DNA of 64,000 bases from Eledone cirrhosa (Eukaryota): the NCBI GenBank assembly GCA_964016885.1, contig OZ024743.1, positions 17,174,001-17,238,000 on the forward strand. The letters run 5' to 3'. Positions 1-60,650 of the stretch are shown here, one piece after another (position 1 is the first letter of the stretch; every line of letters begins with the position of its first letter). The notes under the pieces were generated by a model that ran no database searches, had not been told where the DNA came from, and worked only from the letters and a program-made list of their open reading frames with translations. Both the position numbers and the translations under genes were made by a program.

Positions 1-587
1 AACGGTAACATATGTTCAATATTCAAATATAAGTAACAATATCATTGCTAATAATCTTACAAGAGCGATGTGCCTCAAGTGTCGACAAGCGAACGAAAAA
101 ATAATAATAATATCAACAATAGCAATAAAAACAATATTATTTAAAATAAGAAAACATGTCGTCGGATTATACTGAAGAGAAAGAGAAGAAAGAGAAAAAT
201 TACATTTTAAGTATTGGGATTGTTACAGAATAAATATTATCAACGTTTCTCAACAGTACTTGGAGTGTCTGAAGCATGAATAGAGATGTTATACATAAAA
301 ATCATAGAGCCCACTAGTAAAAGCGTAATATCATTCTACATCAAACCATCTTTAATAAAGTATTCTAAAAATTCTCACTATTAACTATTAAATTGAGCGC
401 ACTCCTTATGTAAGAATAATAAATAATACAAATATAAACCAACTATCGTAACAAACACAATTACTTGGGATATGTAAACCAATATATATATATATATATA
501 TATATATGATAAAATGGGTAGAAAAATACTGCTGGTAGCACATGGATAACATGTAATAAAATAAGTCCCTCATCAGTGATTTGCCGA

Positions 588-6108: not shown

Positions 6109-7400
6109 AAATATATAGCGACGATGAAGCTACAATAGGACAGATGAGCAGGTACCAGTCAAATTAATTGAGGCAACTACAGAGTCCTCAATGTTGTGCA
6201 AAGTTTATAAATTTCTCGAATAGATTTAACACATAGTTTTATATGAGTGATACCATGGATATAACGTCTAGGTGTATGTAGACATTGTTTTTACCCACAA
6301 CAACGACAATCGCCAATATCTAAAATAATCAACGCCCCTCAACTAATTAGCATTCTAGAACTCCGAAAATACACGAGCGTTCGTTTATTATTGTTGCCAT
6401 TATTGTTGTCTTTATTGCGTTCTAGATAATCATTTCTGGTGTGGTGTGATGATCGAGTTTAACCCAATATTCGTTCCTTCCTGCGGATTGCATGGTGAAA
6501 GCTAAGTATTTATATTCGGAATATGAATACTTCTGAGAAAATTAAATTCTCCTATATTATCAAAATAATTTAATGCACACCATTATAGTGTTATACCACG
6601 AAAATGGCTAAATACTTCTCAATCCATTCTGTTAAAAAATGGATTTAAATCCATCATATAAAGATATATATATGCCCTAAAATTATGTAACTCAACCTTT
6701 TCACGCAACTATGTTATCTTATACTCACACATATGTATTTTCATTTTAAGCATCTTTCCCTGAAGCATATTAATTGATAGCTTTTATAATTACATCAGAA
6801 GAGAGTTATTTATAGTATCAGTATATTATATCACTGATTTCAATAAATAAGACAAAAGATACGTCGGAAAGGAAGGGACAATAAAATAACTTCAAATATT
6901 CTGTATATTGTATGAAACAATATTTTACATTTATCCAATATTTTTCTGTCTTTTCGGATTGGATTTAACTAGAATTTTGAAGAAATGTTTTCGACAAACA
7001 ACTTTGCTTTCAATACAAATTAATATTATTCACACATATTATAATTCCAGACAAACCGATATTCAATAATATAATTTTGTTTCTTTATATTCACTTCAAA
7101 ATTTGAATTATGAGAATATTTCTCATGTATTGCTCAAATAAACTTAAAAGTTATTTAAATATATGTAGGATATCCAATACAATTTTGATTGTTCTAGTAT
7201 AGTATGTATACGCACATACATATATGTATACAGACGTACAGTAGTAAGTACATACATGTACACATATATATATATATGTACGTATGGGTTTACCGAACAT
7301 TTATTATAATGTTCGGTTTGTTTGTAAACAAACAGCCCGAATTGAGCCGTAAAGTGTTCGACAACCATCGTTGCCCTTTTGTTCAACATTGACAAAGGAA

Positions 7401-16662: not shown

Positions 16663-16772
16663 ACAGTCTCTGAAGATATGATGGGCCAACATGTATTTTA
16701 AATTGAGTGGCACTACTTTCATTGTTTAGCAATTTTAAGACAACTCTATCAGTGAAACAATTGTTAGACTGT
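16663..16772 (+). ncRNA. Type I hammerhead with 77-nt stem II region
   Basis: ACAGTCT-CTGAAGA-TA-TGATGGG...TCTATCA-GT-GAAA-CAATTG-TT-AGACTGT-AAATAAA; perfect 7-bp stem I. Confidence 0.8.
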
Positions 16773-19704: not shown

Positions 19705-19798
19705 AACATATCTGAGGAACTTACGATTGGAGAGTCAGTTTTGATCAATAACAGATCGTTCCTCGAGGTGATCGACAGCGAAACATATGTACTATTTT
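19705..19798 (+). ncRNA. Hammerhead-like motif with ~61-nt stem II, partly decayed stem I
   Basis: AACATAT-CTGAGGA-A-CT-TA-CGATT...GATCG-AC-AG-C-GAAA-CATATG-TA-CTATTTT. Confidence 0.55.
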
Positions 19799-20278: not shown

Positions 20279-20387
20279 GTATATATTTATACATAATAAA
20301 TGAGTCAAGAATAAGGTGGATCTGTTGTACAATAGAGTTTATTAAAAGTATTAACAATTGTTTCATTAGTCCGATGCGTCTAATAAC

Positions 20388-20615
<228 letters not shown>

Positions 20616-23421: not shown

Positions 23422-23533
23422 GGAACCAGTAAGACACCGACAGCTGAGCTCAAGCCGTTTCGACGGCTAATTCTGGACTAAATGAAAATTTATCCTGGTA
23501 TTTAAATAGCCGATCTTCTCAAGGGGTAATTCC
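23422..23533 (-). ncRNA. Hammerhead U3-A8 variant, left-arm copy (one stem I mismatch)
   Basis: Reverse complement of 25987-26098 with GGGGT changed to GGTGT. Confidence 0.7.
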
Positions 23534-25986: not shown

Positions 25987-26098
25987 GGAATTACCCCTTG
26001 AGAAGATCGGCTATTTAAATACCAGGATAAATTTTCATTTAGTCCAGAATTAGCCGTCGAAACGGCTTGAGCTCAGCTGTCGGGGTCTTACTGGTTCC
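25987..26098 (+). ncRNA. Type I hammerhead with U3-A8 compensatory core and extended stems
   Basis: GGAATT-ACCCC-TTGAGAA-GATCGGCTA-(37 nt)-TAGCCGTC-GAAA-CGGCT-TGAGCTC-AGCTG-TC-GGGGT-CTTACT-GGTTCC. Confidence 0.78.
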
Positions 26099-28286: not shown

Positions 28287-30924
28287 AGGATGAATATAAA
28301 ATGAAAGTGCTTTTGTTAAAAAAGGAATTTATTAGGTATTGACATATGTTTCTGTAACAGACCGAATACCTATGTATCGCTGCTTGCGTAATCATATAAT
28401 GTTAGCAAGTATTCGAAAGCAAATGTATAATCAGTTGTCACTTCTTCAGAGATTTTGGATAAACTGGATAAAATCAGAAAAATTGAAGTATTTATATTAG
28501 TAAAAGAGGAAGGAACAGAGGGGATAGAATATGACAGATGGTAAAATAATTTACTGCTAGACAAGTATATAATGGGTTTTTAATGAGAATACCATGAGTA
28601 AATCTAAATAAGAATTTTGCGGGTGCCAATTTTAATCTCTACTTGACCAACTGGACAGTGGACAGGGCTGGTCATTTGGTGCAGTAGTATTAATTATAAA
28701 GTGTCAATTGGGGAAGGGGGAGATTTCGATTGCTACTAAATAACATCAAAGCTAGTAGCCAGCTGGTATATGCACTAGGGAATTGAATCAAGAAATCAGA
28801 AATCTCATTTTATCTATAGCAGTTTGTATTAAAAGGTAAATAATAGAAGAGTTGATAGAATTAAGACTAATAAAGAATGTTCATATCTATTTTGACAATC
28901 GAACGGGGATAGAGACAGGCCTTCAATCCTGGTAGTATTTATAATATGAAAATGTAGATTTTAGGCGATGGTTACAGTATAACGATCGCTCTATTCTGTT
29001 ATTCAATAAAATGTTTTTGGATTTCATAATACAAAATAATTCTACATTACATAATTTACAAAATTCCTGTCCATTGGATATGGGGGAGGCAGTCGCTATT
29101 ATATCCCATTTTAGGTGAAATTGTTGGTTATTTTCACGCAGCTGCCAAGCCTTGTCTGCGAGTGTTGTTACATAACGCTGGTTTTCATGTTTTATCGAAT
29201 AACGATGTCTATAAAGGCGTGATTTGAAGGAGGTGGCTGTAGATCCCACATAGTACCACTTCTGTCTATCCGATTCGATAGTACATTTGTATACGATGTT
29301 GCGTTCAAGACACTGATTGTTCAACGGACACATTCCTGGTTGGATACAGTTACAATTACAATTTTGCGTTGTTGTATTGCCATGGATGGGTTGATGAGGT
29401 TGCTTATGTAGGACAGGATGTTGTTTGTTGTTTTGTGATGTTATAGCTAATGTTTTACGTGTATTGTTATGTGTTGGAAGGCGTTTATACAACCGTTTTG
29501 CGTTAAGCTTTTTTATATGTTGTTCAATATTAGGGGCGGTTGAATATGAAAGTCGAATGGTGTTAGGGTTTAAGATTTTATTATATTTATGTGATGTTGG
29601 AAAGTGTTTTCTAACTAATCGAAAGAAATTTGAGGGTAGATTGGTTTTAATAGATTTGTTATAGACCGGGTTGTACCAGATATACTCCTTACATCGCCTT
29701 CTGTTTGGTGGTGTGCGACTATTGTTGTGTCTATTGCGGTAGTGTATGTATGGTGGTGATTCTGTGCTATTTCTACTCATATGTGATTTATTTTGGGTGT
29801 TTTGGTGTTCATTGACTATATACTCTATATTATCTAGGTGACCGGCTTTTCTAAGTGCATCATCATAATACTCGGCACGTTCTTTGAAGGTTTGTTAGTT
29901 GGACGATAGGCGGGAGATTCTAAGAGAAACATTTCCAGGGATGGATTTAATTATAGAGAGTGGATGGTTAGAACTCGTATTTACATATTTAAGGTTCTCA
30001 TTTAGTTTATGGAACGGTTTAATCGTATCTGTATTGAGATTGAAAGTAACATCAAGGAAATTGACCTCTTTGAGGTTATATTCAAATGTAATATTTAATC
30101 CTAGTTCTTTAAAAAGTTTTCTGATATTTTTACGCATCCTTTCTAAATTCTGGTTATTCATATGCTTAACTAATAGGAGCGCATCGTCACGGTAAATTCC
30201 GCCGTGGGATCCTTGAATGTTCCTTGTAATCTGTGGGTGATATAAATTCCCACAAGATCTGTTACTTCCACCGAATCATTAGAACCCATAGTGATATCAA
30301 AATTAGAAGGTCTATCTATGCGAACCCAGTAGCTATCATCGAATTTAACTATAGTTTTTCTCGCTTCCATAATAATTTTAATTTCAGCATCCGTAAGGTC
30401 GGAATTATCCTTAGCGAACGAAAGAGCTTCATGTAGAGTATCAGGTGAAATTGAGGAATAATATTCATCAATATCAAACTGAATAAATTTTGATTTTTTC
30501 TTATCAGTAATGTTGTTAAACCATCTTATTGCTTCATGGGTGTTACCCCATAGTCTAACCTCTACTTTAACCTTAACTTGGGGGATAATTCTGTCTAGTA
30601 TATATTTGCTAATTTTACCTATATCAGATTTAGTGGGGCATATAAGTCTAATATTAGGGTTAGTATCGAAGTTTACCTTGTGGTCCTTCAGGTTGAAGGA
30701 TGGTATAGCTGGTGTTAAGGGTTGCGTTCTATCGTCAATACAAAGTTTTTTAACAATATCACATGCCGAGTTGTTGATGTTTTTAAGTGTGGCTTCATTA
30801 GTTTTCCTGTATTTTTTATGCAATTCCTTACGGATGAAGTTATTGTAAGTGTCCACATCCATGGTATATACGTTTGATGTTTTGTCTGCTCTAACAATAA
30901 TTCCATTGGCGTTTTTTAGATTAT
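28282..30924 (-). mobile_element. 5'-truncated degenerate PLE, paralogous family of the 46-55 kb element
   Basis: VRADKTSN, QFDIDEYYSSIS, ITMGSNDS, YRDD, IWYNPVY, NIVYKC...YYVG; stop at ~29895, frameshift at ~30200; pLTR with HHR. Confidence 0.9.
28333..28450 (-). ncRNA. Hammerhead-like motif with 88-nt stem II
   Basis: CTGAAGA-A-GTGACA...TAGGTATT-CGGTC-TGTTAC-A-GAAA-CATATG-TC-AATACCTA-ATAAA. Canonical stem I is only 1 bp. Confidence 0.65.
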
Positions 30925-40068: not shown

Positions 40069-40691
40069 AGAAGCAAAAAAATTGCTTGTTGTGATCCAGT
40101 TTTTGGATAAGAAAGCCAGTTTCATGGATGGTTTCAACGCACGGTTAGGGGTAACTCCACAAGTTTGTAAGAATTCCGTTCAATCTTGGAGTATAAAGTA
40201 TAAAAGGGAAAACACAGGTAAGCATTAAGAGAAGGATTTAATCCAGGTATTTACGACCGTTTCATTGGTAAGTGCAACCTTATATTGCTATGCTGCAAAT
40301 AGCACCCACTCAATTATAATTGTTGTTCACAGTCCAAATTTTCAAAATAGTGAGTTACTTTTGAAATAATTCTTAATATATAGAGAAAAACAGTTATTTG
40401 GAATTGTATTTACTAGTATAGAGAGAGAGGAATCAGGAGGTGAGGGGACAGACGGCATAGTATATATAGAGAGAGAGGAAGGGGGAGGAGGTAGGAAGTA
40501 TAATGACAAACTGAGGTGGAGGTAGGGGTAGAGGTGGAAGGACTCTTTGGTCAGTTTTGATAGCAGACATCATGTCGTTGAGTGTAGTGAGTTAAAGAGA
40601 ATTAAATAGATAATAGTGGGAGGGATGGATAGAGAGGGAGAGAGAGAGAGTGTGGGGGGGGGGAGATATAAAGAGATAAATATATATATAT

Positions 40692-40964: not shown

Positions 40965-43900
40965 GCAATAATAATAATAACGACAACAACAATAATAATA
41001 TAAATATTCATATATATATACACACACACGCACGCACATAAGCATATCTACACACACACACACACGATAGCAACTAACAGTGCTGCGATCGAATGTGGAT
41101 TTTTAGCCCAGCCAATGATATAAATGTCTTGCACAGAGTCGGCAACCAAAACATCCACTGGGAATAGTCGGCTGTGGTTGGAGTTCGTGTACTTTTGCAT
41201 GTCGCTTGAGCCCTCCTGCTGATTTACATTCTCTACCACATGTTTGGCAAGCATGATGAGTAGCATCTCCAACAGCAGCCTGGTAGTCAACCACTGGTCT
41301 TACTTTATGACTGCGAAGATGACTTTCGAGTCCAGCTTTGCTTAGGCAGAGTCTCGCACAGACGCTGCATGTCAGCACCATAGGAGGACCCTCGCCGTCT
41401 GGAAGTACAACAGCAATGCCCTTCCTCACATCCCGCTTTACTTTCTCGTGTGCGATTCGAGATGCCTCAAAGGCAACTTTTCCCTAATATACAGTCTTTC
41501 TCCATTTATTACGATCAGCAGCAATATTTTCCCATGTATCAGCAGAGATGTTAGCGTCTTTCAGAGAGGCTTTCAAGGAATCCTTATACCTCTTTTTTGG
41601 TTATGTGTCGGTCGTTTTCGTTTAACCAACTCTCCATAGAAGAGTTGTTTTGGTATTCTAGAATCCTTCATCCTTGCAAGGTGACCACTCGAACGGAGTC
41701 GTTGCTTTTGAGCACAAGAGCTTCTATACTGTCACACATAGAGCTTTCCAAAATCTCGACATCAATGATGTGGTCCCTCCAGTGAACGCCATGGATCCGT
41801 CTGAGACACATCTGATGGAAACGCTCCAATTGCTTAAGGTGGCGTCGATATGTGACCCAGGTCTCGCAGGCATAAAGAAGACAAGAGAGTACACATGCCC
41901 TGTACACCTTTACCTTTGTCCTCCTGCATATGTCTCGCCGACCCCAGAGTCGCCTTTCTAGCTTTCCGAAAGCATCACTTGCTTTCCTAATCCTAAGTGA
42001 GATTTCACTGTCAAGGTTGCCGTATCGATTGACAGTGCTTCCCAGGTAGACAAACTGATCAACCACTCCAAGTCGTTTGCCATACACATAGATGTTTGGT
42101 TCAGTGTACTGCTTACTAGGGGCAGGTTGGTACATGACGACGGTTTTCTTGAGACTGACAGTCAAACCCAGGGCAGTGCAAGCGTCAGAAAATGCATTCA
42201 ATATGTGGTGCATATCACTCTCTGTGTGCGCTACAAGATCGCAATCCTCTGCATACAAGAGGTCTCTTATGATTGATGTAAATACTTTTGTCTTCGCAGC
42301 AAAGCGCCTGATGTTAAATATGCTGCCTGAGGTTCGATATCAGATGTAAACACCATGCTCGCAATTCCTGAATGCAATACATAAAACCATTGCAAAGTAT
42401 ATGGCAAACAGAGTCGGTGCTGGAATATCCCCGTTTCACTCCATTTTTTACTGAGATAGGCTCCGACATGTTACCTCCGACATTAACCCAAGCCTTCATG
42501 TCGCCATGGAAAGACCTAACTAAAGCAAGGAACTTATCAGGGCAACCAATTTTCTGGAGAACCTTCCATAATGCATCTCTGTTGACAGTATCGAAAGTCT
42601 TTGTCAGATCGACAAAAACCTGATACAGATCCAAGCCTTGTTCAATGCACTTCTCCTGGAGCTGTCTAGCTGAGAAGATCATATCAGTAGTGCCACGTCC
42701 AGTACGAAAACCAGATTGACTTTCAGGAAGAACACAATTTGCAATGTGTGTCAGCAGACGGTCCAGAAGCACCCTACATAAAACTTTCCCTACGACAGAA
42801 AACAATGATATACCTCTGTAGTTCCCACAATCATTCCTGTTGCCCTTTCCCTTGTACAAGACCACCATTACTGCATCTCTCCAGTCCTCAGGCACGGATT
42901 CATTAGCCCATATCCTTCCAAACAAAGAGTGAAGATGTTGCAGGAGTCTTTCACCACCATATTGTAGGAGCTCAGCATGTATGCCATCCATACCTGGAGA
43001 TCTTCCACTGTTCAGCTTCGAAATAGCCACTGCAACCTCCACAAGAGTCGGAGGTTCTGCGAGAGCTACTTTCACAGGACTCTCTGGAATGAGATCGAAG
43101 AAATCTTCACTGACGACAGACGGCTGATTCAAAAGATCATCAAAGTGCTCTCGCCACCTTCGTAGAATTCCCTGTGAGTCACGAAGAAGTTCTTTGCCAT
43201 CCTTGCTGCGAAGCGGTGTCACCAGAGAAGAAGACGGTCCATAAACCTCACGCAAGAGACTGTACAACAGCTTTGTGTTATTGGAATCAGACGCAGTTTG
43301 TATCTCACCAGCCTTCTCACTCCACCACTGATCCTTCATCTGAGAAAGACTCCGCCTAACACGTGATTTTACATCCCTGAGCTCCTCATGCAACGTATTC
43401 CTCTCCTGTGGTTTTGCCGTCAAGTAGCGTGACAGAGCACGCCTCTTATCAGCCAACAAGTCCTCTATATGTACATCATTCTCATTAAACCAGTCCTGAT
43501 GTTTTCTCTGCACCAATCCCAGAACACGCCTGCCTACATCATAAACCGACTTTTTAAGGGTCGGCCAATCCTCACCAAGATCTGCAGCCTGCATCTCTTC
43601 TTCCAATGTCCTCTTCACATTTTTATCCTTAAGACGAGCAGCATTCAATCATTTGGGCAGGGTAACTAACACCAGGAGCCCGGATTTTAGGTTTGGTGAT
43701 TAGTTTCACTTTTGCGCATACCAGGCGGTGGTCCGTCCAGCACTCAGCTCCACGAAGAACACGAACACACTGCACATCCTGTCTGTCAAGCATCCTGACT
43801 AGGACGTAGTCCAAAAGATGCCATTCCTTAGATGCAGGATGCATCCATGTGGTCTTGAATTTGTTCTTTTGTTGGAACATGGTGTTGGTAACACACAGAT

Positions 43901-45176
43901 CCAGCTCCTCACACATCTGCAGCAGGAGCATACCATTGCTGTTACACTTTCCCACCCCATGCCTTCTGATTACATTCCATGTGTTAAAATCCCTACCCAC
44001 TCTAGCATTAAAGTCGCCAAGCACGATGACTTTGTCTGCCTGAGGGATATTTCTTAGAACACCTTTCAAGGCATGGTAAAAGGACAGTTTTTCTTCATCG
44101 ACAGAATTCATAGTTGGAGCATACACACTCACCAGGGTAGCATATCTTCCCTTGTCCAGCGGAACTCTCATGGACATAAGACGCTCACTAATCCCTAATG
44201 GGAATTCTTCTAATTTATTCACAAGTACAGTCTTAACAGCAAATCCAACCCCAGCCTCTCTTCTGGTTCCTTCATCTCTTCCTTTCCAGAAGAATGTATA
44301 TTCTCCATAAAATTCCGTAAGATGACCATCTCCAGCTAACCTCGTCTCAGATAAAGCCACGATGTCAAGATCGTAACGTCGAAGCTCCTTTGCAACAAGA
44401 GCGGTCCTCCGTTCAGGACGCTCCAAAGAATCCCTGTCAAGCAGCGTCCGTACGTTCCAGCAGCCAAGACTAAATGCCCTGTTTGGCTCTATTACAATGG
44501 CACGATGACGAGCGGGCCCAGGCTGTGATAACTTGGGGCCCCTGCCCTTATTGCCAATGATCTTTTTTGTTCCAGAACCTAAATTGCCAATTATCTCTTT
44601 TACATTGTTCTGGAACATCATTGAATTGGAAAAAAAAAAAAAAAAAAGTAATAATAATAGTAATAATAATTGTTTCTACGTTTGGCACAAGGCCAGCAAT
44701 TACCCAGTGCATTACTGGTACTTTATTTTATCGACCCCGTAAGGATGAAAGGCAAAGTTAACCTCGACGGGATTTGAACTCAGATCGTAAAGGGACGTAA
44801 CTATGCTGGAAAGCATGGCGTCCGACCTTCTACCGATACTGCCAAATCACCGAATAATAATATTAATAATAGTACACTATTAATAATTATTAATGCACTC
44901 GTGCAATGCCTGTGCGTGACGAATATTTTTAAAGTGAGGAAAGACTGTGCACTGAGCCAATCCCACTCTCTGAGCGACAGTAGCTATAACCCGAAAAGAA
45001 GAAAAGATCAACATCATCGGTAACTACTGAGCCGCAGGTTTTATATCGAAGTTAACCCAGTTTCCTGAGATGCCTTCTCCTAGAAGAATGCCCTGACAAG
45101 GGCTAGGGGTTCTTAACTCCCAGTGGTTTAACTGCGCGATCGGGCATCCAGCCCGATTATTTCTATGTCCCCGCGC
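40692..45176 (-). mobile_element. Near full-length RTE (RTE-1/BovB-like) LINE, frameshifted; APE + RT + C-terminal C2H2 fingers
   Basis: WNVRTLLD..PERRTALVAKEL, SETRL, GDFNARVG, TDHRLV; NYRGISL, ESQSGFR, FVDLTKTFDTV, YAEDCDL, YLGS; CxxC..HxxxH fingers at 41100-41375. UTR limits are approximate. Confidence 0.9.
44665..44852 (-). mobile_element. tRNA-derived SINE inserted upstream of the RTE ORF
   Basis: A/B boxes and core as in 15910-16094; flanked by AATAATAATA(G/T)TAATAAT. Confidence 0.9.
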
Positions 45177-46435: not shown

Positions 46436-46538
<103 letters not shown>

Positions 46539-47221
46539 AAGTTAATTTGTATTCCAATGTTACTAAGTAGTTGCATTGGATGTAGTCAACTGACGTCAGA
46601 GATTGCTCAACGTATAATAAAGTGTGTTTTAAAATCCGGAGAAATTATGGAGAAAAAATTTACGAAATGGAAATGCGGGTATATAGAATTTATTATGTAA
46701 CAATTGTTTCTATAGTGTATGAGTTACCTATACCTCGCTACTTGAATAATACACAAATATTATCAAAAACCGAAAGTACACTGTAAGCCAACACACCATG
46801 TCGTCAGACCTTTGTATTAGAATGATATGAAAATATTTTATACACTAGATAAAAGATAAAGAAGGAGGTAGGAAGAAAAGGGGAAGAGGGAAGTGAGTAA
46901 GGTGGAGGGAGTCTTAGGGTTTAAGACTGTCAGACTAGTAGAGATTGTGAAGAGAGAATGTTTTGGCAGCAGTTAGCTAAATGAGGCGTGCTAAGGGTGG
47001 CTGGGAAGTAGATTCTTCTAGTGGTGTTGTTCGGACAAAATTTAGTTAGAGGGGTCAAAGTAGTACAGTGTCACAGACAAGTTATTAGGGCTATTATAGT
47101 AGCAGGTTATTTCTAAAGGGGTCCAGAAAAACAGTGTTTAGTACTATTATTATAGAAAGCCATATCTAGTGTATAAACATATAAGACAGAAATTTGCAAA
47201 CGTTGGTGTAAAAAGGTAACA

Positions 47222-49504
47222 TTATATGCATTTAAAAAAAGAAAAAGTCGTTTTCAAACGATGGTTACAATATAGAGAACGTTCAATTTTGCTGTTCAAA
47301 AGTTTGTTTACCGACGTTAAAATGCAGTATATCTCTAAATTGCATAACTTGCAGAATCGATGATTTTGCTGATATGCAGGCGCAGCTGCAATAATTTGCC
47401 AATCAAGGGAGAACGCTTGATTGTTCCTCCGAAGCTGCCAGGCTTTATCAGCGAGGGTTGTTACGGAGCGCATTTTCTCGTGCCTGATCGAAGATCGATG
47501 TTGGTATAGGCGAGCCTTGAAAGAAGTTGCGGTACATCCGACGTAATACCATTTGTTGGTCCCGGAATTTATTGTACACCGGTAGACAATATTGCGTGCT
47601 AGGCACTGGTTATTCAGTCGGCACGTACCTGGTTTGGTGCAGTTACAACTATTTTTATGTTTTGCAGTAGAATCCTGGATAGTTTGGTGGGGTTGTGGTT
47701 GCGTGTTAGTGCGTTGTATGTTGCTATGCTGGTGCGCTGAGTCATTAGGGATGTACTTATTCAGTATTGCTGAGTTGAGTTTTCTAATTAGTTGTTCTAT
47801 GTTAGGTGCAGTGGAGTATGAGAGTCTAATGGTGCGCGAGTTAAAGATTTTATAGTATTTATGTGAAGTTGTAAAGTGTTTATTGATTAGTGTATAGAAT
47901 TGTGAGATAATCTTAGTGCTAATAGAAGAATTGTACACGGGGTTATACCATATGTACTCTCTACGTCTGACTCTATTTGCTGGTTTGCACCTGTTAGTAT
48001 GCCTATTGATGTGTGTGTGTGGTGCAATACTAGTTCGACTTAGATGTGTTTTATTCATAGTACTTATGTGGTTATCGTCTAGATATTCAATTTTCTCGCA
48101 GTAACCAGCTTTTCTAAGTGCGTCATTATAATATTCAGCATGCTCGTTGAAGGTCTGCAAATTAGACGACAGTCGGGAGATCCTTATGGATATATTTTTA
48201 GGGATAGATTTAATAATGGGATGAGGATGGTTCGATTTTACATTAACGTACTTAAGATTTTCATTAAGTTTGTGAAATGGCTCTATATTACCGTTATTAA
48301 GGTTGAAGGTGACATCCAAGAAGTTGACCACCTTTAGATTGTGTTCAAAGGTAATATTAAGCCCTAGTTCTAAGAAAAGTTTCCTAATGTTTTTACGTCG
48401 CCTTTCTAGGTTTTGTTTGTTCATATTCTTGACTAATAGAAGTGTATCGTCGCGGTATATTCCGCCGTGGAGGTCCGTAAATTCGCTCTGGAGTCTATGG
48501 GCTATATAGATCCCAACCAAATCGGTGACCTCCGCCGAATCATTAGAACCCATCGTAATGTCGAATTCCGCGGGTCTATCCCTGCGGACCCAATAACTAT
48601 TTTCAAAGTGCACTACTGTGCGTCTAGCTTCAAGTATAATATTAATTTCCTCGTTTGTGAGGTCCGAGTTAGTCCTAGCGAAAGAGAGGGCCTTATGCGG
48701 GGTTTCAGGTGAAATAGAGGAATAGTATTCATCTATATCGAATTGAATAAAAGAAGATTTGTTTTTGTCCCTAATGTTATTGAACCATCTTATTGACTGA
48801 TGAGTATTACCCCATAATTTAATATCTACCTTAGCCTTAACTTGGGGGATAATACGATCTAATATGTACTTACTAATCCTACCTATATCGGACTTTGAAG
48901 GACATATTAATCTAATTTTAGGGTTAGTATCGAAGTTATCCTTATGGTCCTTCAGATTAAAAGTCGGTGTAGCTGGGGATAGGGGTACTGTTCTGTCGTC
49001 AATTTTCAGTTTCCTAACAATATCACATGCTGCGTTATTAATGTTGGTTAGTGTAGTTGCGTTTGTTTTTTTGTACTTCCTATGTAATTCCTTACGTATA
49101 AAATTGTTATATGTTTCTACATCCAGGGTGTATAGATTCGAAGTTTTGTCTGCCTTTATGATAATTCCTTTGGTATTCCTTAGGTTGTTGAGTAGAGTTT
49201 TAATATCTCGTTGCAGTTCGTTTTTCCTTCCGTTTGTAAATTTGATTCCGGTTATCATTTTCATTAAGTCCTGTTCGAAAGAATCCAAAAGAGGGTTAGA
49301 GGGTGGGTTTTTGTAGGAGTTGAAACCAAACTTCTCGTTGTTGGTGTCCGAAGTTTGTGTAATTCTTTTCCTATCGAAGTGGAAGGCCTTCCATCTAATC
49401 CGCCGAATAAATTCGTTGGTCCTTTGTATCATACCAAGAATGTAATCCTTTTTACCCTGAATTGGTATGTTTTTTAAGGACATACCACAATGATGTTTCT
49501 CCAT
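47222..49504 (-). CDS. Penelope-like reverse transcriptase / GIY-YIG endonuclease, 760 aa, uninterrupted
   Basis: SLKNIP N-terminus, KADKT, QFDIDEYYSSI, ITMGSNDS, GIYRDD, NFLDVTF, WYNP, CNC..GTCRL..QC, NIVY...YYVG, CKLC, CNH. Confidence 0.93.
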   Translation of the reverse strand: MEKHHCGMSLKNIPIQGKKDYILGMIQRTNEFIRRIRWKAFHFDRKRITQTSDTNNEKFGFNSYKNPPSNPLLDSFEQDLMKMITGIKFTNGRKNELQRDIKTLLNNLRNTKGIIIKADKTSNLYTLDVETYNNFIRKELHRKYKKTNATTLTNINNAACDIVRKLKIDDRTVPLSPATPTFNLKDHKDNFDTNPKIRLICPSKSDIGRISKYILDRIIPQVKAKVDIKLWGNTHQSIRWFNNIRDKNKSSFIQFDIDEYYSSISPETPHKALSFARTNSDLTNEEINIILEARRTVVHFENSYWVRRDRPAEFDITMGSNDSAEVTDLVGIYIAHRLQSEFTDLHGGIYRDDTLLLVKNMNKQNLERRRKNIRKLFLELGLNITFEHNLKVVNFLDVTFNLNNGNIEPFHKLNENLKYVNVKSNHPHPIIKSIPKNISIRISRLSSNLQTFNEHAEYYNDALRKAGYCEKIEYLDDNHISTMNKTHLSRTSIAPHTHINRHTNRCKPANRVRRREYIWYNPVYNSSISTKIISQFYTLINKHFTTSHKYYKIFNSRTIRLSYSTAPNIEQLIRKLNSAILNKYIPNDSAHQHSNIQRTNTQPQPHQTIQDSTAKHKNSCNCTKPGTCRLNNQCLARNIVYRCTINSGTNKWYYVGCTATSFKARLYQHRSSIRHEKMRSVTTLADKAWQLRRNNQAFSLDWQIIAAAPAYQQNHRFCKLCNLEIYCILTSVNKLLNSKIERSLYCNHRLKTTFSFFKCI

Positions 49505-49711
49505 TTCAAAGACGCGGGTTGATAGGTTGCTCGACTGTAAAGGAGTGTGAAGAATTAGTTAATTTGTATTCCAATGTTACTAAGTAGTTGCATTGGATGT
49601 ATTCAACTGACGTCAGAGATTGCTCAACGTATAATAAAGTGTGTTTTAAAATCCGGAGAAAATATGAAGAAAAAATTTACGAAATGGAAATGCGGGTATA
49701 TAGAATTTATT

Positions 49712-49828
49712 AGGTAACAATTGTTTCTATAGTGTATGAGTTACCTACACCTCGCTACTTGAATAATACACAAATATTATCAAAAACCGAAAGTACACTG
49801 TAAGCCAACACACCATGTCGTCAGACCT
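49712..49828 (-). ncRNA. pLTR hammerhead with 88-nt stem II, intact core
   Basis: Reverse complement of 54870-54986. The copies at 46695-46811 (stem I ACCT to ACAT) and 51853-51969 (core CTGATGG) are mutated. Confidence 0.72.
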
Positions 49829-50238
49829 TTGTATTAGAATGATATGAAAATATTTTATACACTAGATAAAAGATAAAGAAGGAGGTAGGAAGAAAAGGGG
49901 AAGAGGGAAGTGAGTAAGGTGGAGGGAGTCTTAGGGTTTAAGACTGTCAGACTAGTAGAGATTGTGAAGAGAGAATGTTTTGGCAGCAGTTAGCTTAATG
50001 AGGCGTGCTAAGGTTGGCTGGGAAGTAGATTCTTCTAGTGGTGTTGTTCGGACAAAATTTAGTTAGAGGGGTCAAAGTAGTACAGTGTCACAGACAAGTT
50101 ATTAGGGCTATTATAGTAGCAGGTTATTTCTAAAGGGGTCCAGAAAAACAGTGTTTAGTACTATTATTATAGAAAGCCATATCTAGTGTATAAACATATA
50201 AGACAGAAATTTGCAAACGTTGGTGTAAAAAGGTAACA

Positions 50239-51306
50239 TTATATGCATTTAAAAAAAGAAAAAGTCGTTTTCAAACGATGGTTACAATATAGAGAACGTT
50301 CAATTTTGCTGTTCAAAAGTTTGTTTACCGACGTTAAAATGCAGTATATCTCTAAATTGCATAACTTGCAGAATCGATGATTTTGCTGATATGCAGGCGC
50401 AGCTGCAATAATTTGCCAATCAAGGGAGAACGCTTGATTGTTCCTCCGAAGCTGCCAGGCTTTATCAGCGAGGGTTGTTACGGAGCGCATTTTCTCGTGC
50501 CTGATCGAAGATCGATGTTGGTATAGGCGAGCCTTGAAAGAAGTTGCGGTACATCCGACGTAATGCCATTTGTTGGTCCTGGAATTTATTGTACACCGGT
50601 AGACAATATTGCGTGCTAGGCACTGGTTATTCAGTCGGCACGTACCTGGTTTGGTGCAGTTACAACTATTTTTATGTTTTGCAGTAGAATCCTGGATAGT
50701 TTGGTGGGGTTGTGGTTGCGTGTTAGTGCGTTGTATGTTGCTATGCTGGTGCGCTGAGTCATTAGGGATGTACTTATTCAGTATTGCTGAGTTGAGTTTT
50801 CTAATTAGTTGTTCTATGTTAGGTGCAGTGGAGTATGAGAGTCTAATGGTGCGCGAGTTAAAGATTTTATAGTATTTATGTGAAGTTGTAAAGTGTTTAT
50901 TGATTAGTGAATAGAATTGTGAGATAATCTTAGTGCTAATAGAAGAATTGTACACGGGGTTATACCATATGTACTCTCTACGTCTGACTCTATTTGCTGG
51001 TTTGCACCTGTTAGTATGCCTATTGATGTGTGTGTGTGGTGCAATACTAGTTCGACTTAGATGTGTTTTATTCATAGTACTTATGTGGTTATCGTCTAGA
51101 TATTCAATTTTCTCGCAGTAACCAGCTTTTCTAAGTGCGTCATTATAATATTCAGCATGCTCGTTGAAGGTCTGCAAATTAGACGACAGTCGGGAGATCC
51201 TTATGGATATATTTTTAAGGATAGATTTAATAATGGAATGAGGATGGTTCGATTTTACATTAACGTACTTAAGATTTTCATTAAGTTTGTGAAATGGCTC
51301 TATATT
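50239..51306 (-). pseudogene. 5'-truncated second copy of the PLE ORF (thumb + endonuclease)
   Basis: Matches 47222-48289 and ends at the inversion junction. Confidence 0.9.
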
Positions 51307-52176
51307 ATTCTGCAAGTTATGCAATTTAGAGATATACTGCATTTTAACGTCGGTAAACAAACTTTTGAACAGCAAAATTGAACGTTCTCTATATTGTAAC
51401 CATCGTTTGAAAACGACTTTTTCTTTTTTTAAATGCATATAATGTTACCTTTTTACACCAACGTTTGCAAATTTCTGTCTTATATGTTTATACACTAGAT
51501 ATGGCTTTCTATAATAATAGTACTAAACACTGTTTTTCTGGACCCCTTTAGAAATAACCTGCTACTATAATAGCCCTAATAACTTGTCTGTGACACTGTA
51601 CTACTTTGACCCCTCTAACTAAATTTTGTCCGAACAACACCACTAGAAGAATCTACTTCCCAGCCAACCTTAGCACGCCTCATTAAGCTAACTGCTGCCA
51701 AAACATTCTCTCTTCACAATCTCTACTTGTCTGACAGTCTTAAAGCCTAAGACTCCCTCCACCTTACTCACTTCCCTCTTCCCCTTTTCTTCCTACCTCC
51801 TTCTTTATCTTTTATCTAGTGTATAAAATATTTTCATATCATTCTAATACAAAGGTCTGATGGCATGTTGTGTTGGCTTACAGTGTACTTTCGGTTTTTG
51901 ATAATATTTGTGTATTATTCAAGTAGCGAGGTATAGGTAACTCATACACTATAGAAACAATTGTTACCTAATAAATTCTATATACCCGCATTTCCATTTC
52001 GTAAATTTTTTCTCCATATTTTCTCCGGATTTTAAAACACACTTTATTATACGTTGAGCAATCTCTGACGTCAGTTGACTACATCCAATGCAACTACTTA
52101 GTAACATTGGAATACAAATTAACTAATTCTTCACACTCCTTTACAGTCGAGCAACCTATCAACCCGCGTCTTTGAA

Positions 52177-54461
52177 ATGGAAAAACATCATTGTGGTATG
52201 TCCTTAAAAAACATACCAATTCAGGGTAAAAAGGATTACATTCTTGGTATGATACAAAGGACCAACGAATTTATTCGGCGGATTAGATGGCAGGCCTTCC
52301 ACTTCGATAGGAAAAGAATTACACAAACTTCGGACACCAACAACGAGAAGTTTGGTTTCAACTCCTACAAAAACCCACCCTCTAACCCTCTTTTGGATTC
52401 TTTCGAACAGGACTTAATGAAAATGATAACCGGAATCAAATTTACAAACGGAAGGAAAAACGAACTGCAACGAGATATTAAAACTCTACTCAACAACCTA
52501 AGGAATACCAAAGGAATTATCATAAAGGCAGACAAAACTTCGAATCTATACACCCTGGATGTAGAAACATATAGCAATTTTATACGTAAGGAATTACATA
52601 GGAAGTACAAAAAAACAAACGCAACTACACTAACCAACATTAATAACGCAGCATGTGATATTAGGAAACTGAAATTTGACGACAGAACAGTACCCCTATC
52701 CCCAGCTACACCGACTTTTAATCTGAAGGACCATAAGGATAACTTCGATACTAACCCTAAAATTAGATTAATATGTCCTTCAAAGTCCGATATAGGTAGG
52801 ATTAGTAAGTACATATTAGATCGTATTATCCCCCAAGTTAAGGCTAAGGTAGATATTAAATTATGGTGTAATACTCATCAGTCAATAAGATGGTTCAATA
52901 ACATTAGGGACAAAAACAAATCTTCTTTTATTCAATTCGATATAGATGAATACTATTCCTCTATTTCACCTGAAACCCCGCATAAGGCCCTCTCTTTCGC
53001 TAGGACTAACTCGGACCTCACAAACGAGGAAATTAATATTATACTTGAAGCTAGACGCACAGTAGTGCACTTTGAAAATAGTTATTGTGTCCGCAGGGAT
53101 AGACCCTCGGAATTCGACATTACGATGGGTTCTAATGATTCGGCGGAGGTCACGGATTTGGTTGGGATCTATATAGCCCATAGACTCCAGAGCGAATTTA
53201 CGGACCTCCACGGCGGAATATACCGCGACGATACACTTCTATTAGTCAAGAATATGAACAAACAAAACCTAGAAAGGCGACGTAAAAACATTAGGAAACT
53301 TTTCTTAGAACTAGGGCTTAATATTACCTTTGAACACAATCTAAAGGTGGTCAACTTCTTGGATGTCACCTTCAACCTTAATAACGGTAATATAAAAAAG
53401 AGCCATTTCACAAACTTAATGAAAATCTTAAGTACGTTAATGTAAAATCGAACCATCCTCATCCCATTATTAAATCTATCCCTAAAAATATATCCATAAG
53501 GATCTCCCGACTGTCGTCTAATTTGCAGACCTTCAACGAGCATGCTGAATATTATAATGACGCACTTAGAAAAGCTGGTTACTGCGAGAAAATTGAATAT
53601 CTAGACGATAACCACATAAGTACTATGAATAAAACACATCTAAGTCGAACTAGTATTGCACCACACACACACATCAATAGGCATACTAACAGGTGCAAAC
53701 CAGCAAATAGAGTCAGACGTAGAGAGTACATATGGTATAACCCCGTGTACAATTCTTCTATTAGCACTAAGATTATCTCACAATTCTATACACTAATCAA
53801 TAAACACTTTACAACTTCACATAGATACTATAAAATCTTTAACTCGCGCACCATTAGACTCTCATACTCCACTGCACCTAACATAGAACAACTAATTAGA
53901 AAACTCAACTCAGCAATACTGAATAAGTACACCCCTAATGACTCAGCGCACCAGCATAGCAACATACAACGCACTAACACGCAACCACAACCCCACCAAA
54001 CTATCCAGGATTCTACTGCAAAACATAAAAATAGTTGTAACTGCACCAAACCAGGTACGTGCCGACTGAATAACCAGTGCCTAGCACGCAATATTGTCTA
54101 CCGGTGTACAATAAATTCCGGGACCAACACATGGTATTACGTCGGATGTACCGCAACTTCTTTCAAGGCTCGCCTATACCAACATCGATCTTCGATCAGG
54201 CACGAGAAAATGCCCTCCGTAACAACCCTCGCTGATAAAGCCTGGCAGCTTCGGAGGAACAATCAAGCGTTCTCCCTTGATTGGCAAATTATTGCAGCTG
54301 CGCCTGCATATCAGCAAAATCATCGATTCTGCAAGTTATGCAATTTAGAGATATACTGCATTTTAACGTCGGTAAACAAACTTTTGAACAGCAAAATTGA
54401 ACGTTCTCTATATTGTAACCATCGTTTGAAAACGACTTTTTCTTTTTTTAAATGCATATAA
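52177..54461 (+). pseudogene. Full-length PLE ORF copy with a frameshift at the A-run near 53395
   Basis: AATATAGAGCC became AATATAAAAAAGAGCC (+5 nt); one codon deleted near 52660; ORF split into 422 + 312 aa. Confidence 0.9.
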
Positions 54462-54869
54462 TGTTACCTTTTTACACCAACGTTTGCAAATTTCTGTCAT
54501 ATGTTTATACACTAGATATGGCTTTCTATAATAATAGTACTAAACACTGTTTTTCTGGACCCCTTTAGAAATAACCTGCTACTATAATAGCCCTAATAAC
54601 TTGTCTGTGACACTGTACTACTTTAACCCCTCTAACTAAATTTTGTTCGAACAACACCACTAGAAGAATCTACTTCCCAGCCAACCTTAGCACGCCTCAT
54701 TAAGCTAACTGCTGCCAAAACATTCTCTCTTCACAATCTCTACTAGTCTGACAGTCTTAAACCCTAAGACTCCCTCCACCTTACTCACTTCCCTCTTCCC
54801 CTTTTCTTCCTACCTCCTTCTTTATCTTTTATCTAGTGTATAAAATATTTTCATATCATTCTAATACAA

Positions 54870-54986
54870 AGGTCTGACGACATGGTGTGTTGGCTTACAG
54901 TGTACTTTCGGTTTTTGATAATATTTGTGTATTATTCAAGTAGCGAGGTATAGGTAACTCATACACTATAGAAACAATTGTTACCT
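54870..54986 (+). ncRNA. pLTR hammerhead with 88-nt stem II, intact core
   Basis: AGGT-CTGACGA-C-ATGGTGTGT-(70 nt hairpin)-ATACACTAT-A-GAAA-CAATTG-TT-ACCT-AATAAA. Confidence 0.75.
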
Positions 54987-55023
54987 AATAAATTCTATAT
55001 ACCCGCATTTCCATTTCGTAAAT

Positions 55024-55166
<143 letters not shown>

Positions 55167-59663: not shown

Positions 59664-60650
59664 TCCAGTAGGTATTACGTACCCACGGAAATATATATGG
59701 TGTCTATAATAGTGGTTGTTCTGTGGTACTAATATGAGATACCAGAACTGTAAATATGAGCGGAACAAGTAAGCATTAAACAATCTTTTAAATAAATTAA
59801 AATACGATTTAAATATTTACCTCTTCTGTTGCTATGACCGACGGTTTCGCTTATCAAAAGATTGGAAATTCAGAGAATGTCCAATGGAAAGATATAGCAT
59901 TTCAGATAGCTTTTCCAAACTTAGTAGATATAAATCCAAGTAAGTAGATATATCGCTTTCTGCCCTGTGAATGAATCAAGCCATTAAAATAACCCACACA
60001 CAAATAGACCGTAAGAAAAGCGGGAACTATAGACTCATTGATATTTCATATTACTAGAAATAGCGGCAAGATACACCCTTTTTTTCTCAACATTAAGGAG
60101 ATTACAGATAAATGATATAGATATTCCAGTAGGTATTAAGTACCCACGGAAATATATATGGTGTCTATAATAGTGGTTGTTCTGTGGTACTAATTTGAGA
60201 TACCAGAACTGTAAATATGAGCGGAACAAGTAAGCATTAAAAGATCTTTTAAATAAATTAAAATACGATTTAAATATTTACCTCTTCTATTACCATGACC
60301 GACAGTTTCACTTATTAAAAGATTGGAAAATCAGAGAATTTCCAATGGAGAGATATAGCTCTTCAGATAGCTTTCCCAAACTTACTAGATATAAATACAA
60401 GTAAGTAGATGGGTCATTTTAACGGCTTGATTATTTCACCGGGCAGGAAGCGATACATCTACTTACTTGGATTTATATCTAGTAAGTTTGGAAAAGCTAT
60501 CTGAAGTGCTATATCTTTCCATTGGAAATTCTCCGAATGTCCAATCTTTTGATAAGCGAAACCGTCGGTCATGGCAATAGAAGAGGTAAATATTTAAATC
60601 GTATTTTAATTTATTTAAAAGATTGCTTGATGTTTACTTGTTCCACTCAT
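59660..60650. mobile_element. Retrozyme-like element: 461-bp unit in partial tandem + fold-back, three HHR motifs
   Basis: HHRs at 59831-59910 (-), 60292-60371 (-, intact CTGAAGA) and 60496-60575 (+): GCTAT-CTGAAGA-GCT..AGC-GAAA-CCGTCGG-TC-ATGGC. Confidence 0.8.

Follow-up and report, generated by a model that had tools for sequence, protein, structure and literature searches.

A long-armed stem II variant of the Penelope-like element hammerhead with a recurring internal loop

The window, that is, the whole 64-kb stretch of DNA analysed here, contains an inverted tandem array of one family, termed family A, that covers 46.5-55.0 kb. Family A is young, its copies being 99% identical, and at 46534-55031 it forms two partial tandems with a head-to-head junction at about 51307. 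The array carries an open ORF of 778 codons on the minus strand (47222..49558) with RWK, DKT, YRDD, CxCX5C, CxxC-E and CxH motifs, and a frameshifted Hydra-clade RT-GIY-YIG ORF on the plus strand (52123..54461), located upstream of the pseudo-LTR that contains the hammerhead at 54870-54986. The open ORF was not recognised in a Pfam search. When it was compared with the Hydra-clade feature list taken from section 11 of PMC8557442, it displayed RWK at residue 55, DKT at 137, CNCTKPGTC at 638, YVG at 672, CKLCNLE at 736 and CNH at 764. The element itself has a 3.0-kb unit, a single ORF, pseudo-LTRs and ends in (TA)n or (CT)n, and the corresponding expectation for Hydra-clade Penelope-like elements (PLEs) is a unit of about 3 kb or less, tandem or inverted copies and insertion at (TA)n (PMC8557442, in the parts used here). 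Judged from these sequence features, family A is a Hydra-clade PLE with a hammerhead in its pseudo-LTR, and its ORF begins about 210 nt past the cleavage site. The window also contains, at 41668-44675(-), a LINE-type element that is frameshifted and gave Pfam matches to an endonuclease and an RT.

The plus strand of 54870-54986 reads aggt CTGACGA, a 90-nt spacer, GAAA CAATTG TT / acct AATAAA, and constitutes a type I hammerhead motif in which CUGANGA, GAAA and NUH occur in order alongside stems I, II and III. The 5' strand of stem I (54870..54873) forms 4 bp with 54983-54986, at a predicted pair probability of about 0.5, and is followed by the core CUGACGA (C3-A9, 54874..54880). The 90-nt stem II arm (54881..54970) has unpaired end bases, a 9-bp proximal helix (54882-54890/54961-54969) and then an irregular rod, and it was more stable than shuffled sequences in a folding test (z -4.6). 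Within the rod, the outer internal-loop module (54899..54953) places AGUG at 54899-54902 opposite UAG at 54951-54953 (A.G, bulged N, U.A, G.U) between covarying closing pairs; at the inner module position (54911..54943), the ANUK/YAG loop that is intact in most relatives is degenerate in family A (G.G, U-A, U.U, without a bulge). GAAA (54971-54974) and the palindromic stem III ACAAUUGU occupy 54971..54982, with cleavage predicted after U54982 (GTT). This stem III is an 8-nt palindrome and is predicted to pair only as a dimer (monomer unfolded; dimer -10.2 kcal/mol). The 3' strand of stem I and AAUAAA follow at 54983..54992, and the 3' extension runs from 54983 to 55031, the element end, which belongs to the nearer of two clusters of termini (+48 to +57); (CT)n/(TA)n comes next. 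An upstream frame of 23 codons (54882-54953, +) opens within stem II and is closed by the outer-loop TAG; family B, described below, does not have it. TATA-like boxes, possibly a promoter, lie about 35-45 nt 5' of the core in both families (54839-54846(+) in A and 28490-28496(-) in B). No hammerhead family was among the 121 Rfam matches in the window at E<=1; both long and short hammerheads were missed, so the failure of Rfam is not specific to long arms.

Further family A copies lie on the minus strand at 49724..49824, a long-arm hammerhead, and at 46707..46807, a long-arm hammerhead in which the 3' strand of stem I is mutated, and on the plus strand at 51857..51957, where the core is mutated to CTGATGG. 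The 28 kb family (family B; 28349..28449, -) is homologous to A and has a 90-nt arm that folds at z -3.1, a 1-bp stem I with a predicted pair probability of 0, and an ORF remnant at 28938-30922. The first-pass annotation had described the arms of these two families as equally long, at 88 nt, but different in sequence, and had taken the shared length as conserved across divergent PLE families. The equality of length was borne out, and both of the pairings it named, ATGGTGTGT/ATACACTAT and GTGACA/TGTTAC, are present. The value is 90 nt between CTGANGA and GAAA in both; 88 nt is obtained only by dropping two unpaired end bases, which were not dropped for the other families. The sequences also proved to be related, as the arms are identical at 44 of 90 ungapped positions (shuffle mean 24.7, maximum 43 in 20,000) and the RTs are 76% identical over 241 aa. 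Equal arm length in A and B thus results from homology and not convergence, and reflects common descent inside one clade.

The remaining arms of the window are shorter. A decayed copy of the two-module type (16670..16757, +) has a 77-nt arm and a 7-bp stem I, both as first described, and a decayed copy of the one-module (AGUC/GAG) type (19712..19783, +) has a 61-nt arm and no stem I; the arms of these two copies failed to beat shuffles (z +0.9 and +1.2, respectively). The 26 kb family (25998..26062, +) combines a 54-nt arm with a U3-A8 core variant (TTGAGAA) and a long stem III. The measured 61 and 54 nt agreed with the earlier estimates, while the hammerhead at 60306..60366(-), put at about 42 nt before, has an arm of 50 nt. 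The 54- and 50-nt arms fall outside the module scan, for which a 59-nt cut-off was set. The U3-A8 variant with a 54-nt spacer and long stem III was also seen at 23458-23522(-) and at 6238-6320(+) of a fetched locus (L133), where it follows a Hydra-type ORF at a distance of 1.1 kb. Type I motifs with short spacers (13-28 nt) occur in the window at 2987(-), 7436(-), 37102(+), 38802(+), 55387(-), 62113(-) and 62270(+), and a covariance model detected decayed or partial long-arm copies at 40235-40353(-) (36.8 bits) and 20336-20399(-) (26.8 bits).

Comparison with published PLE hammerheads, drawn from parts of the cited papers, showed both shared features and differences. Canonical hammerheads are described as "readily detected" in the Hydra clade (Craig et al. 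2021, PMC8557442), and those in its File S2 have stems II of 3-7 bp and loops of 3-10 nt, with a spacer of about 23 nt in Hydra-1_oBim; the longest spacers in that file are about 50-55 nt, in the spike-moss PLE-X1. The hammerheads described here share with them the pseudo-LTR position, the sense strand, the core, a near-palindromic stem III, a short stem I, an often unpaired base beside the core, the same protein motifs and (TA)n targets, but differ in a stem II of 60-116 nt with a recurring internal loop. Minimal PLE hammerheads were characterised by Cervera and de la Pena (2014, PMC4209133) as having a larger-than-usual helix II of 7-8 bp, which corrects the initial statement that PLE hammerheads typically have a short stem II. 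The present motifs resemble them in a dimer-dependent stem III, a short helix I, an unpaired base starting helix II and, in the 26 kb family, the U3-A8 core variant. Unlike them, the arm is about ten times longer; the first position of stem II (10.1-11.1) is paired in 10 of the 34 families defined below, and PLE hammerheads were already known to have an additional unpaired base where helix II begins (PMC4209133).

To estimate abundance, the 3.0-Gb genome was searched by pattern, with reversed patterns as controls; the counts given here are matches and not copy numbers, and some matches falsely pair an outer core with an inner hammerhead. Spacers of 60-118 nt gave about 32,000 matches against about 670 in the control, made up of 8,739 against 78 for 60-87 nt (with a narrower stem III pattern) and 23,357 against 593 for 88-118 nt. 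Shorter spacers gave 11,799 against 2,409 (8-38 nt) and 7,721 against 663 (39-59 nt), so that spacer lengths are continuous from 8 to 118 nt, and the pattern for the two 90-nt families gave 2,275 matches against 0. A metagenome pattern scan, in which 80 of 118 loci were scored with the model, yielded nothing convincing (best 28 bits, compared with 62-92 for true members). A literature search covering few subscription papers found no account of 60-116-nt stem II arms in PLE hammerheads. The long-armed stem II variant, many sites of which lie in PLEs, is thus real, abundant and apparently undescribed, and in a single animal genome standard descriptors overlook hammerhead motifs by the tens of thousands. 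In seven loci (L057, L064, L075, L100, L108, L142, L159), two copies stand head to head and each is cut off no more than about 60 nt upstream of the core, for which either ascertainment or a preferred break point could account.

We next asked whether the arm behaves as a selected RNA structure, as the first-pass annotation had proposed. Fetched loci provided 128 distinct spacers, which formed 45 clusters at 80% identity, and 34 families were kept. Excluded were three clusters below 59 nt, single matches judged to be chance or unrelated (L079, L085, L110-464, L140, L160), L139 and L068, which have an inner short core, and L137, a homologue of L068; some loop counts (n=36) retain L068 and L137. 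The covariation check that the annotation had suggested, carried out across the 34 families, was positive for the proximal stem: at positions 2-7, 162 of 204 cells were paired, compared with 99.7±5.8 when strands were swapped between families. For 31 arms of 77-92 nt that were aligned by sequence only, a 12-pair middle helix was 81.6% paired, compared with 69.1±1.3 in shuffles and 31-47% when slid, and showed 56 doubly changed cells against 20; two type-counting measures of the five used were not above shuffles (255/500 and 100/500). The structure was named by eye, and both it and the loop scan were defined after inspection of the same sequences, so that these covariation tests lean towards the structure. 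RNAalifold on a MAFFT alignment of the 31 arms returned no consensus pairs. Separately, an RNAalifold fold of the 60-62-nt group was set aside as weak and incompatible with the hammerhead core. G.U was preferred over A.C by 26 to 8 and the sense strand was more stable in 24 of 34 families, both of which point to sense RNA. Taken together with the recurring internal loop described next, these sequence comparisons indicate that the long arm is very probably a selected RNA structure.

The recurring element is a 4x3 loop in which 5'-ANUK-3' faces 5'-YAG-3', present at both ends of the middle helix. In the outer loop, A was found in 29/31, U in 31/31, A in 31/31 and G in 30/31 arms, with a variable bulge N (U 22, A 7, G 2), whereas the inner loop retained AG in 30/31 and ANU in 21/31 in strict register. 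Its arrangement differs by group: the 77-92-nt clade has a pair of copies separated by 10-11 nt, the 60-62-nt group a single copy as AGUC/GAG, and the 99-116-nt group a single copy near the arm tip. A loop scan, written after the motif had been noticed, was positive in 20 of 34 representatives, compared with 1 antisense and 1 reversed, and dinucleotide shuffles would lead to 2.5 positives out of 36. Counting any member, 26 of the 34 families contain the loop and 8 lack it in every member; arms without it include lengths of 93-96, 98 and 102 nt. In family A the outer loop is intact and the inner one degenerate; most family B members are negative in the strict scan because of flanking mismatches, with only 1 of 12 positive.

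The order of this loop recalls the sarcin-ricin (bulged-G) loop (PMC8450098, in the part compared), which likewise is a 4x3 loop with a purine.purine pair, a bulged base and an invariant U.A; as read from the sequences, U and A after the bulge are invariant here too. It differs in having A.G where A.A or A.C is usual, a bulge that is mostly U, and a last pair of G.U, U.U or G-C, with G.U or U.U in the outer loop, instead of a sheared A.G. As both the bulged G and the upper sheared A.G are missing, the loop was not classed as a true sarcin-ricin motif. It is a small, repeated mutational target bounded by covariation and located next to the open ORF of a young family, and it bears on the recognition of PLE RNA by the element's own protein and on what PLE hammerheads do.

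A tree built on 140 columns from 26 endonuclease fragments, all of this genome, joined the two-loop families and one unlinked row in a clade (100/100), and placed the 99-116-nt group with one unlinked row as its sister with weak support (75/90). Families with 10-11-nt and 18-20-nt spacers formed separate starred clades. The endonuclease clades that contain the loop are deeply diverged, with 32-65% identity to family A. Comparison of single and multiple origins of long arms gave AU values of 0.39 and 0.11, and an earlier topology rejection on this point was confounded by two unlabelled nested rows. No ORF was found in 30 loci of the 60-62-nt group, which is possibly non-autonomous. In three of its loci (L166, L173, L176; within 1.4 kb upstream of 1532), this group has in common a long upstream stretch that is non-coding and rich in microsatellites.

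The surroundings of the arm suggest a weak ribozyme. Stem I, with a median of 4 bp, was not present in every long-arm family, being 0-2 bp in 11 of 34, and stem III was palindromic in 30 of 34. AAUAAA occurs downstream of the cleavage site in 21 of 34 families, at 0-9 nt, and also trails short-arm (20-nt-spacer) hammerheads. The ends of 35 family A copies fell at +48..57 (19 copies) and +156..166 (11 copies), with 5 running into the ORF; the hammerhead is kept intact in genomic copies, and the two clusters suggested uncleaved RNA as the template and two favoured start sites. A comparable situation has been described for the Anolis Poseidon element PAc (Frangieh et al. 2024, PMC11167929, in the part consulted), where RT starts at two internal sites, the hammerhead is cleaved only with protein and the template is uncleaved RNA. 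Both systems thus have a hammerhead intact in the template and two clustered 3' termini downstream of it. PAc belongs to another clade, its termini are 30-40 nt apart as opposed to about 110 nt here, and its ORF starts in stem II, whereas that of family A starts well after the cleavage site.

From these sequence patterns, the best of the explanations considered, which we hold to be possible, if somewhat short of probable, is that the stem II loop is a docking site for the element's own RT-endonuclease. The element protein would bind the arm on an uncleaved tandem transcript, so selecting the template, and the bound protein would start reverse transcription downstream of the cleavage site at two places, near +50 and +160. 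It might also assist folding of the weak, dimer-dependent ribozyme, in which case cleavage would be slow or conditional. Docking is favoured by the covarying arm and its recurring loop, by the variable position of the loop, by a stem I of 0-2 bp in 11 of 34 families, by the two clusters of copy ends and by the tracking of two-module arms with one endonuclease clade (100/100). Against it, insertion in the Anolis system survived a 5' truncation to +20 that takes away most of stem II (PMC11167929, same part), and stem I is weak or absent; this genome also abounds in Hydra-type families whose spacers measure 10-20 nt, so that the arm is not needed in general. The degenerate inner loop of family A, the mostly negative strict scan of family B, the 8 families without a loop and the negative RNAalifold result count against docking as well.

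An RNA-RNA tertiary role, in which the loop docks on stem I, on the strand with AAUAAA or on the other hammerhead of a dimer and so offsets the weak stem I, appeared unlikely. Natural hammerheads do need helix I-II contacts for efficient cleavage (PMC4209133, in the part used), and the short stem I, palindromic stem III and frequent AAUAAA described above would suit such a contact. However, the loop lies about 15, 16-24 or 34-41 nt into the spacer, depending on the group, and a distance from the core that varies between 15 and 41 nt is more in keeping with an independent ligand site than with a fixed contact to stem I; AAUAAA is found 0-9 nt from the cleavage site, and after 20-nt-spacer hammerheads too. 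An apparent UAGGU/ACCUA pairing with the post-cleavage strand is limited to families A and B, and its bases covary inside the arm. As a pseudoknot between UAGGU of the arm and the post-cleavage ACCUA, it was rejected, with a predicted probability of about 0.09 in A and 0.47 in B and no equivalent in other families; it was retained solely as a possible inactive fold of family B.

We attached a low probability to a role of the arm in serving a host factor or RNA stability, through export, decay or translation. The arm would become the 3'-terminal hairpin of the upstream RNA after cleavage, or would lie in the 5' leader of the next ORF if uncleaved, and sarcin-ricin-like loops act as protein sites; cleavage would, however, leave the arm and the ORF on different products. 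Type I hammerheads located in the 5' UTRs of viruses promote cap-independent translation, yet their "long helix II" is just 6-8 bp (PMC13725137, in the part covered). Similarly improbable is a merely tolerated insertion, in which selection would keep the arm folded clear of the core and the loop would be inherited ancestry. The continuum of spacer lengths, the several long arms that lack the loop and the possibility that the loop-bearing, ORF-linked families are one lineage (the weak 75/90 node) would agree with it, but the unpaired loop bases are near-invariant while the adjoining pairs change on both sides, and the loop is duplicated, occurs in three arm architectures and spans the diverged endonuclease clades. 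That YAG is instead the 3' splice site of a PLE leader intron is highly improbable: the Penelope intron ends inside its hammerhead (PMC4209133) and YAG is found in both loop copies, but the 60-62-nt group has GAG, and YAG covaries with the ANUK strand facing it and with the flanking pairs.

Docking of the element's protein on the loop also forms part of a wider proposal, which we regard as rather doubtful as a whole. It holds that PLE hammerheads have been rebuilt as protein platforms, the Hydra stem II having gained one or two new sarcin-ricin-like loops that are bound by the telomerase-related RT for template choice, and that Naiads carry an active, non-circularly permuted hammerhead, which would be the first in a eukaryotic genome. 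The Naiad part arose from the suggestion in the first-pass annotation that PLE clades scored as lacking hammerheads may have been missed because of a long stem II. This explanation does not apply to Hydra, whose hammerheads are already known; the idea of hidden, non-canonical hammerheads found support in Naiads, through a permuted order and not a long stem II.

Naiads are scored as lacking canonical hammerheads (PMC8557442, in the part covered). Inspection by eye of 31 of the 54 consensus 3' ends in File S5 of that paper revealed the permuted order cleavage site-GAAA-CUGAUGA in 7 of the 31 (Bfor, Amil, Aacu, Anas, Obim, Ovul and Esco), from four lineages. The stems I and III of these ends differ yet are complementary; stem I has 2 bp in Bfor and 6 bp in the other six, and stem III has 5-13 bp. 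By eye, an upstream strand also pairs with the strands flanking stem II. Type-SGC hammerheads (Eckert et al. 2023, PMC10085705, in the part compared), which come from metatranscriptomes, have this same order of cleavage site, GAAA and CUGANGA; the Naiad motif shares the S-G-C order with covarying stems I and III, but it is located at retrotransposon 3' ends and a direct stem II is unsupported. A literature search covering few subscription papers found no account of permuted hammerheads in Naiads.

The permuted-order pattern gave 152 matches in the present genome against 25 in the control. Among the first 20 matches listed, stem I covaried (71 against 52.4±4.3), while a direct stem II, between the strand after CUGANGA and that before GAAA, did not (42 against 43.5±2.3), and pairing with an upstream strand was not above permutation in these 20 unselected matches. 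No Naiad ORF was detected upstream of 40 permuted-motif matches, and an exact 15-mer of the octopus Naiad motif gave 1 match against 6 in the control. The putative permuted hammerhead of Naiads, which by these comparisons would not be a member of the type-SGC class, is put forward as a strong lead. If true, it would overturn the view that Naiads lack hammerheads and provide a genomic host for permuted hammerheads. Two further observations were made. Several old repeat families in this genome display the permuted order (L191-L210 and L212-L231, around position 1500 or near the locus end), and the bivalve Naiads CGi, Sglo, Olur, Tgra and Pmar of File S5 (PMC8557442) share a structured-looking 3' motif, without the hammerhead core boxes.
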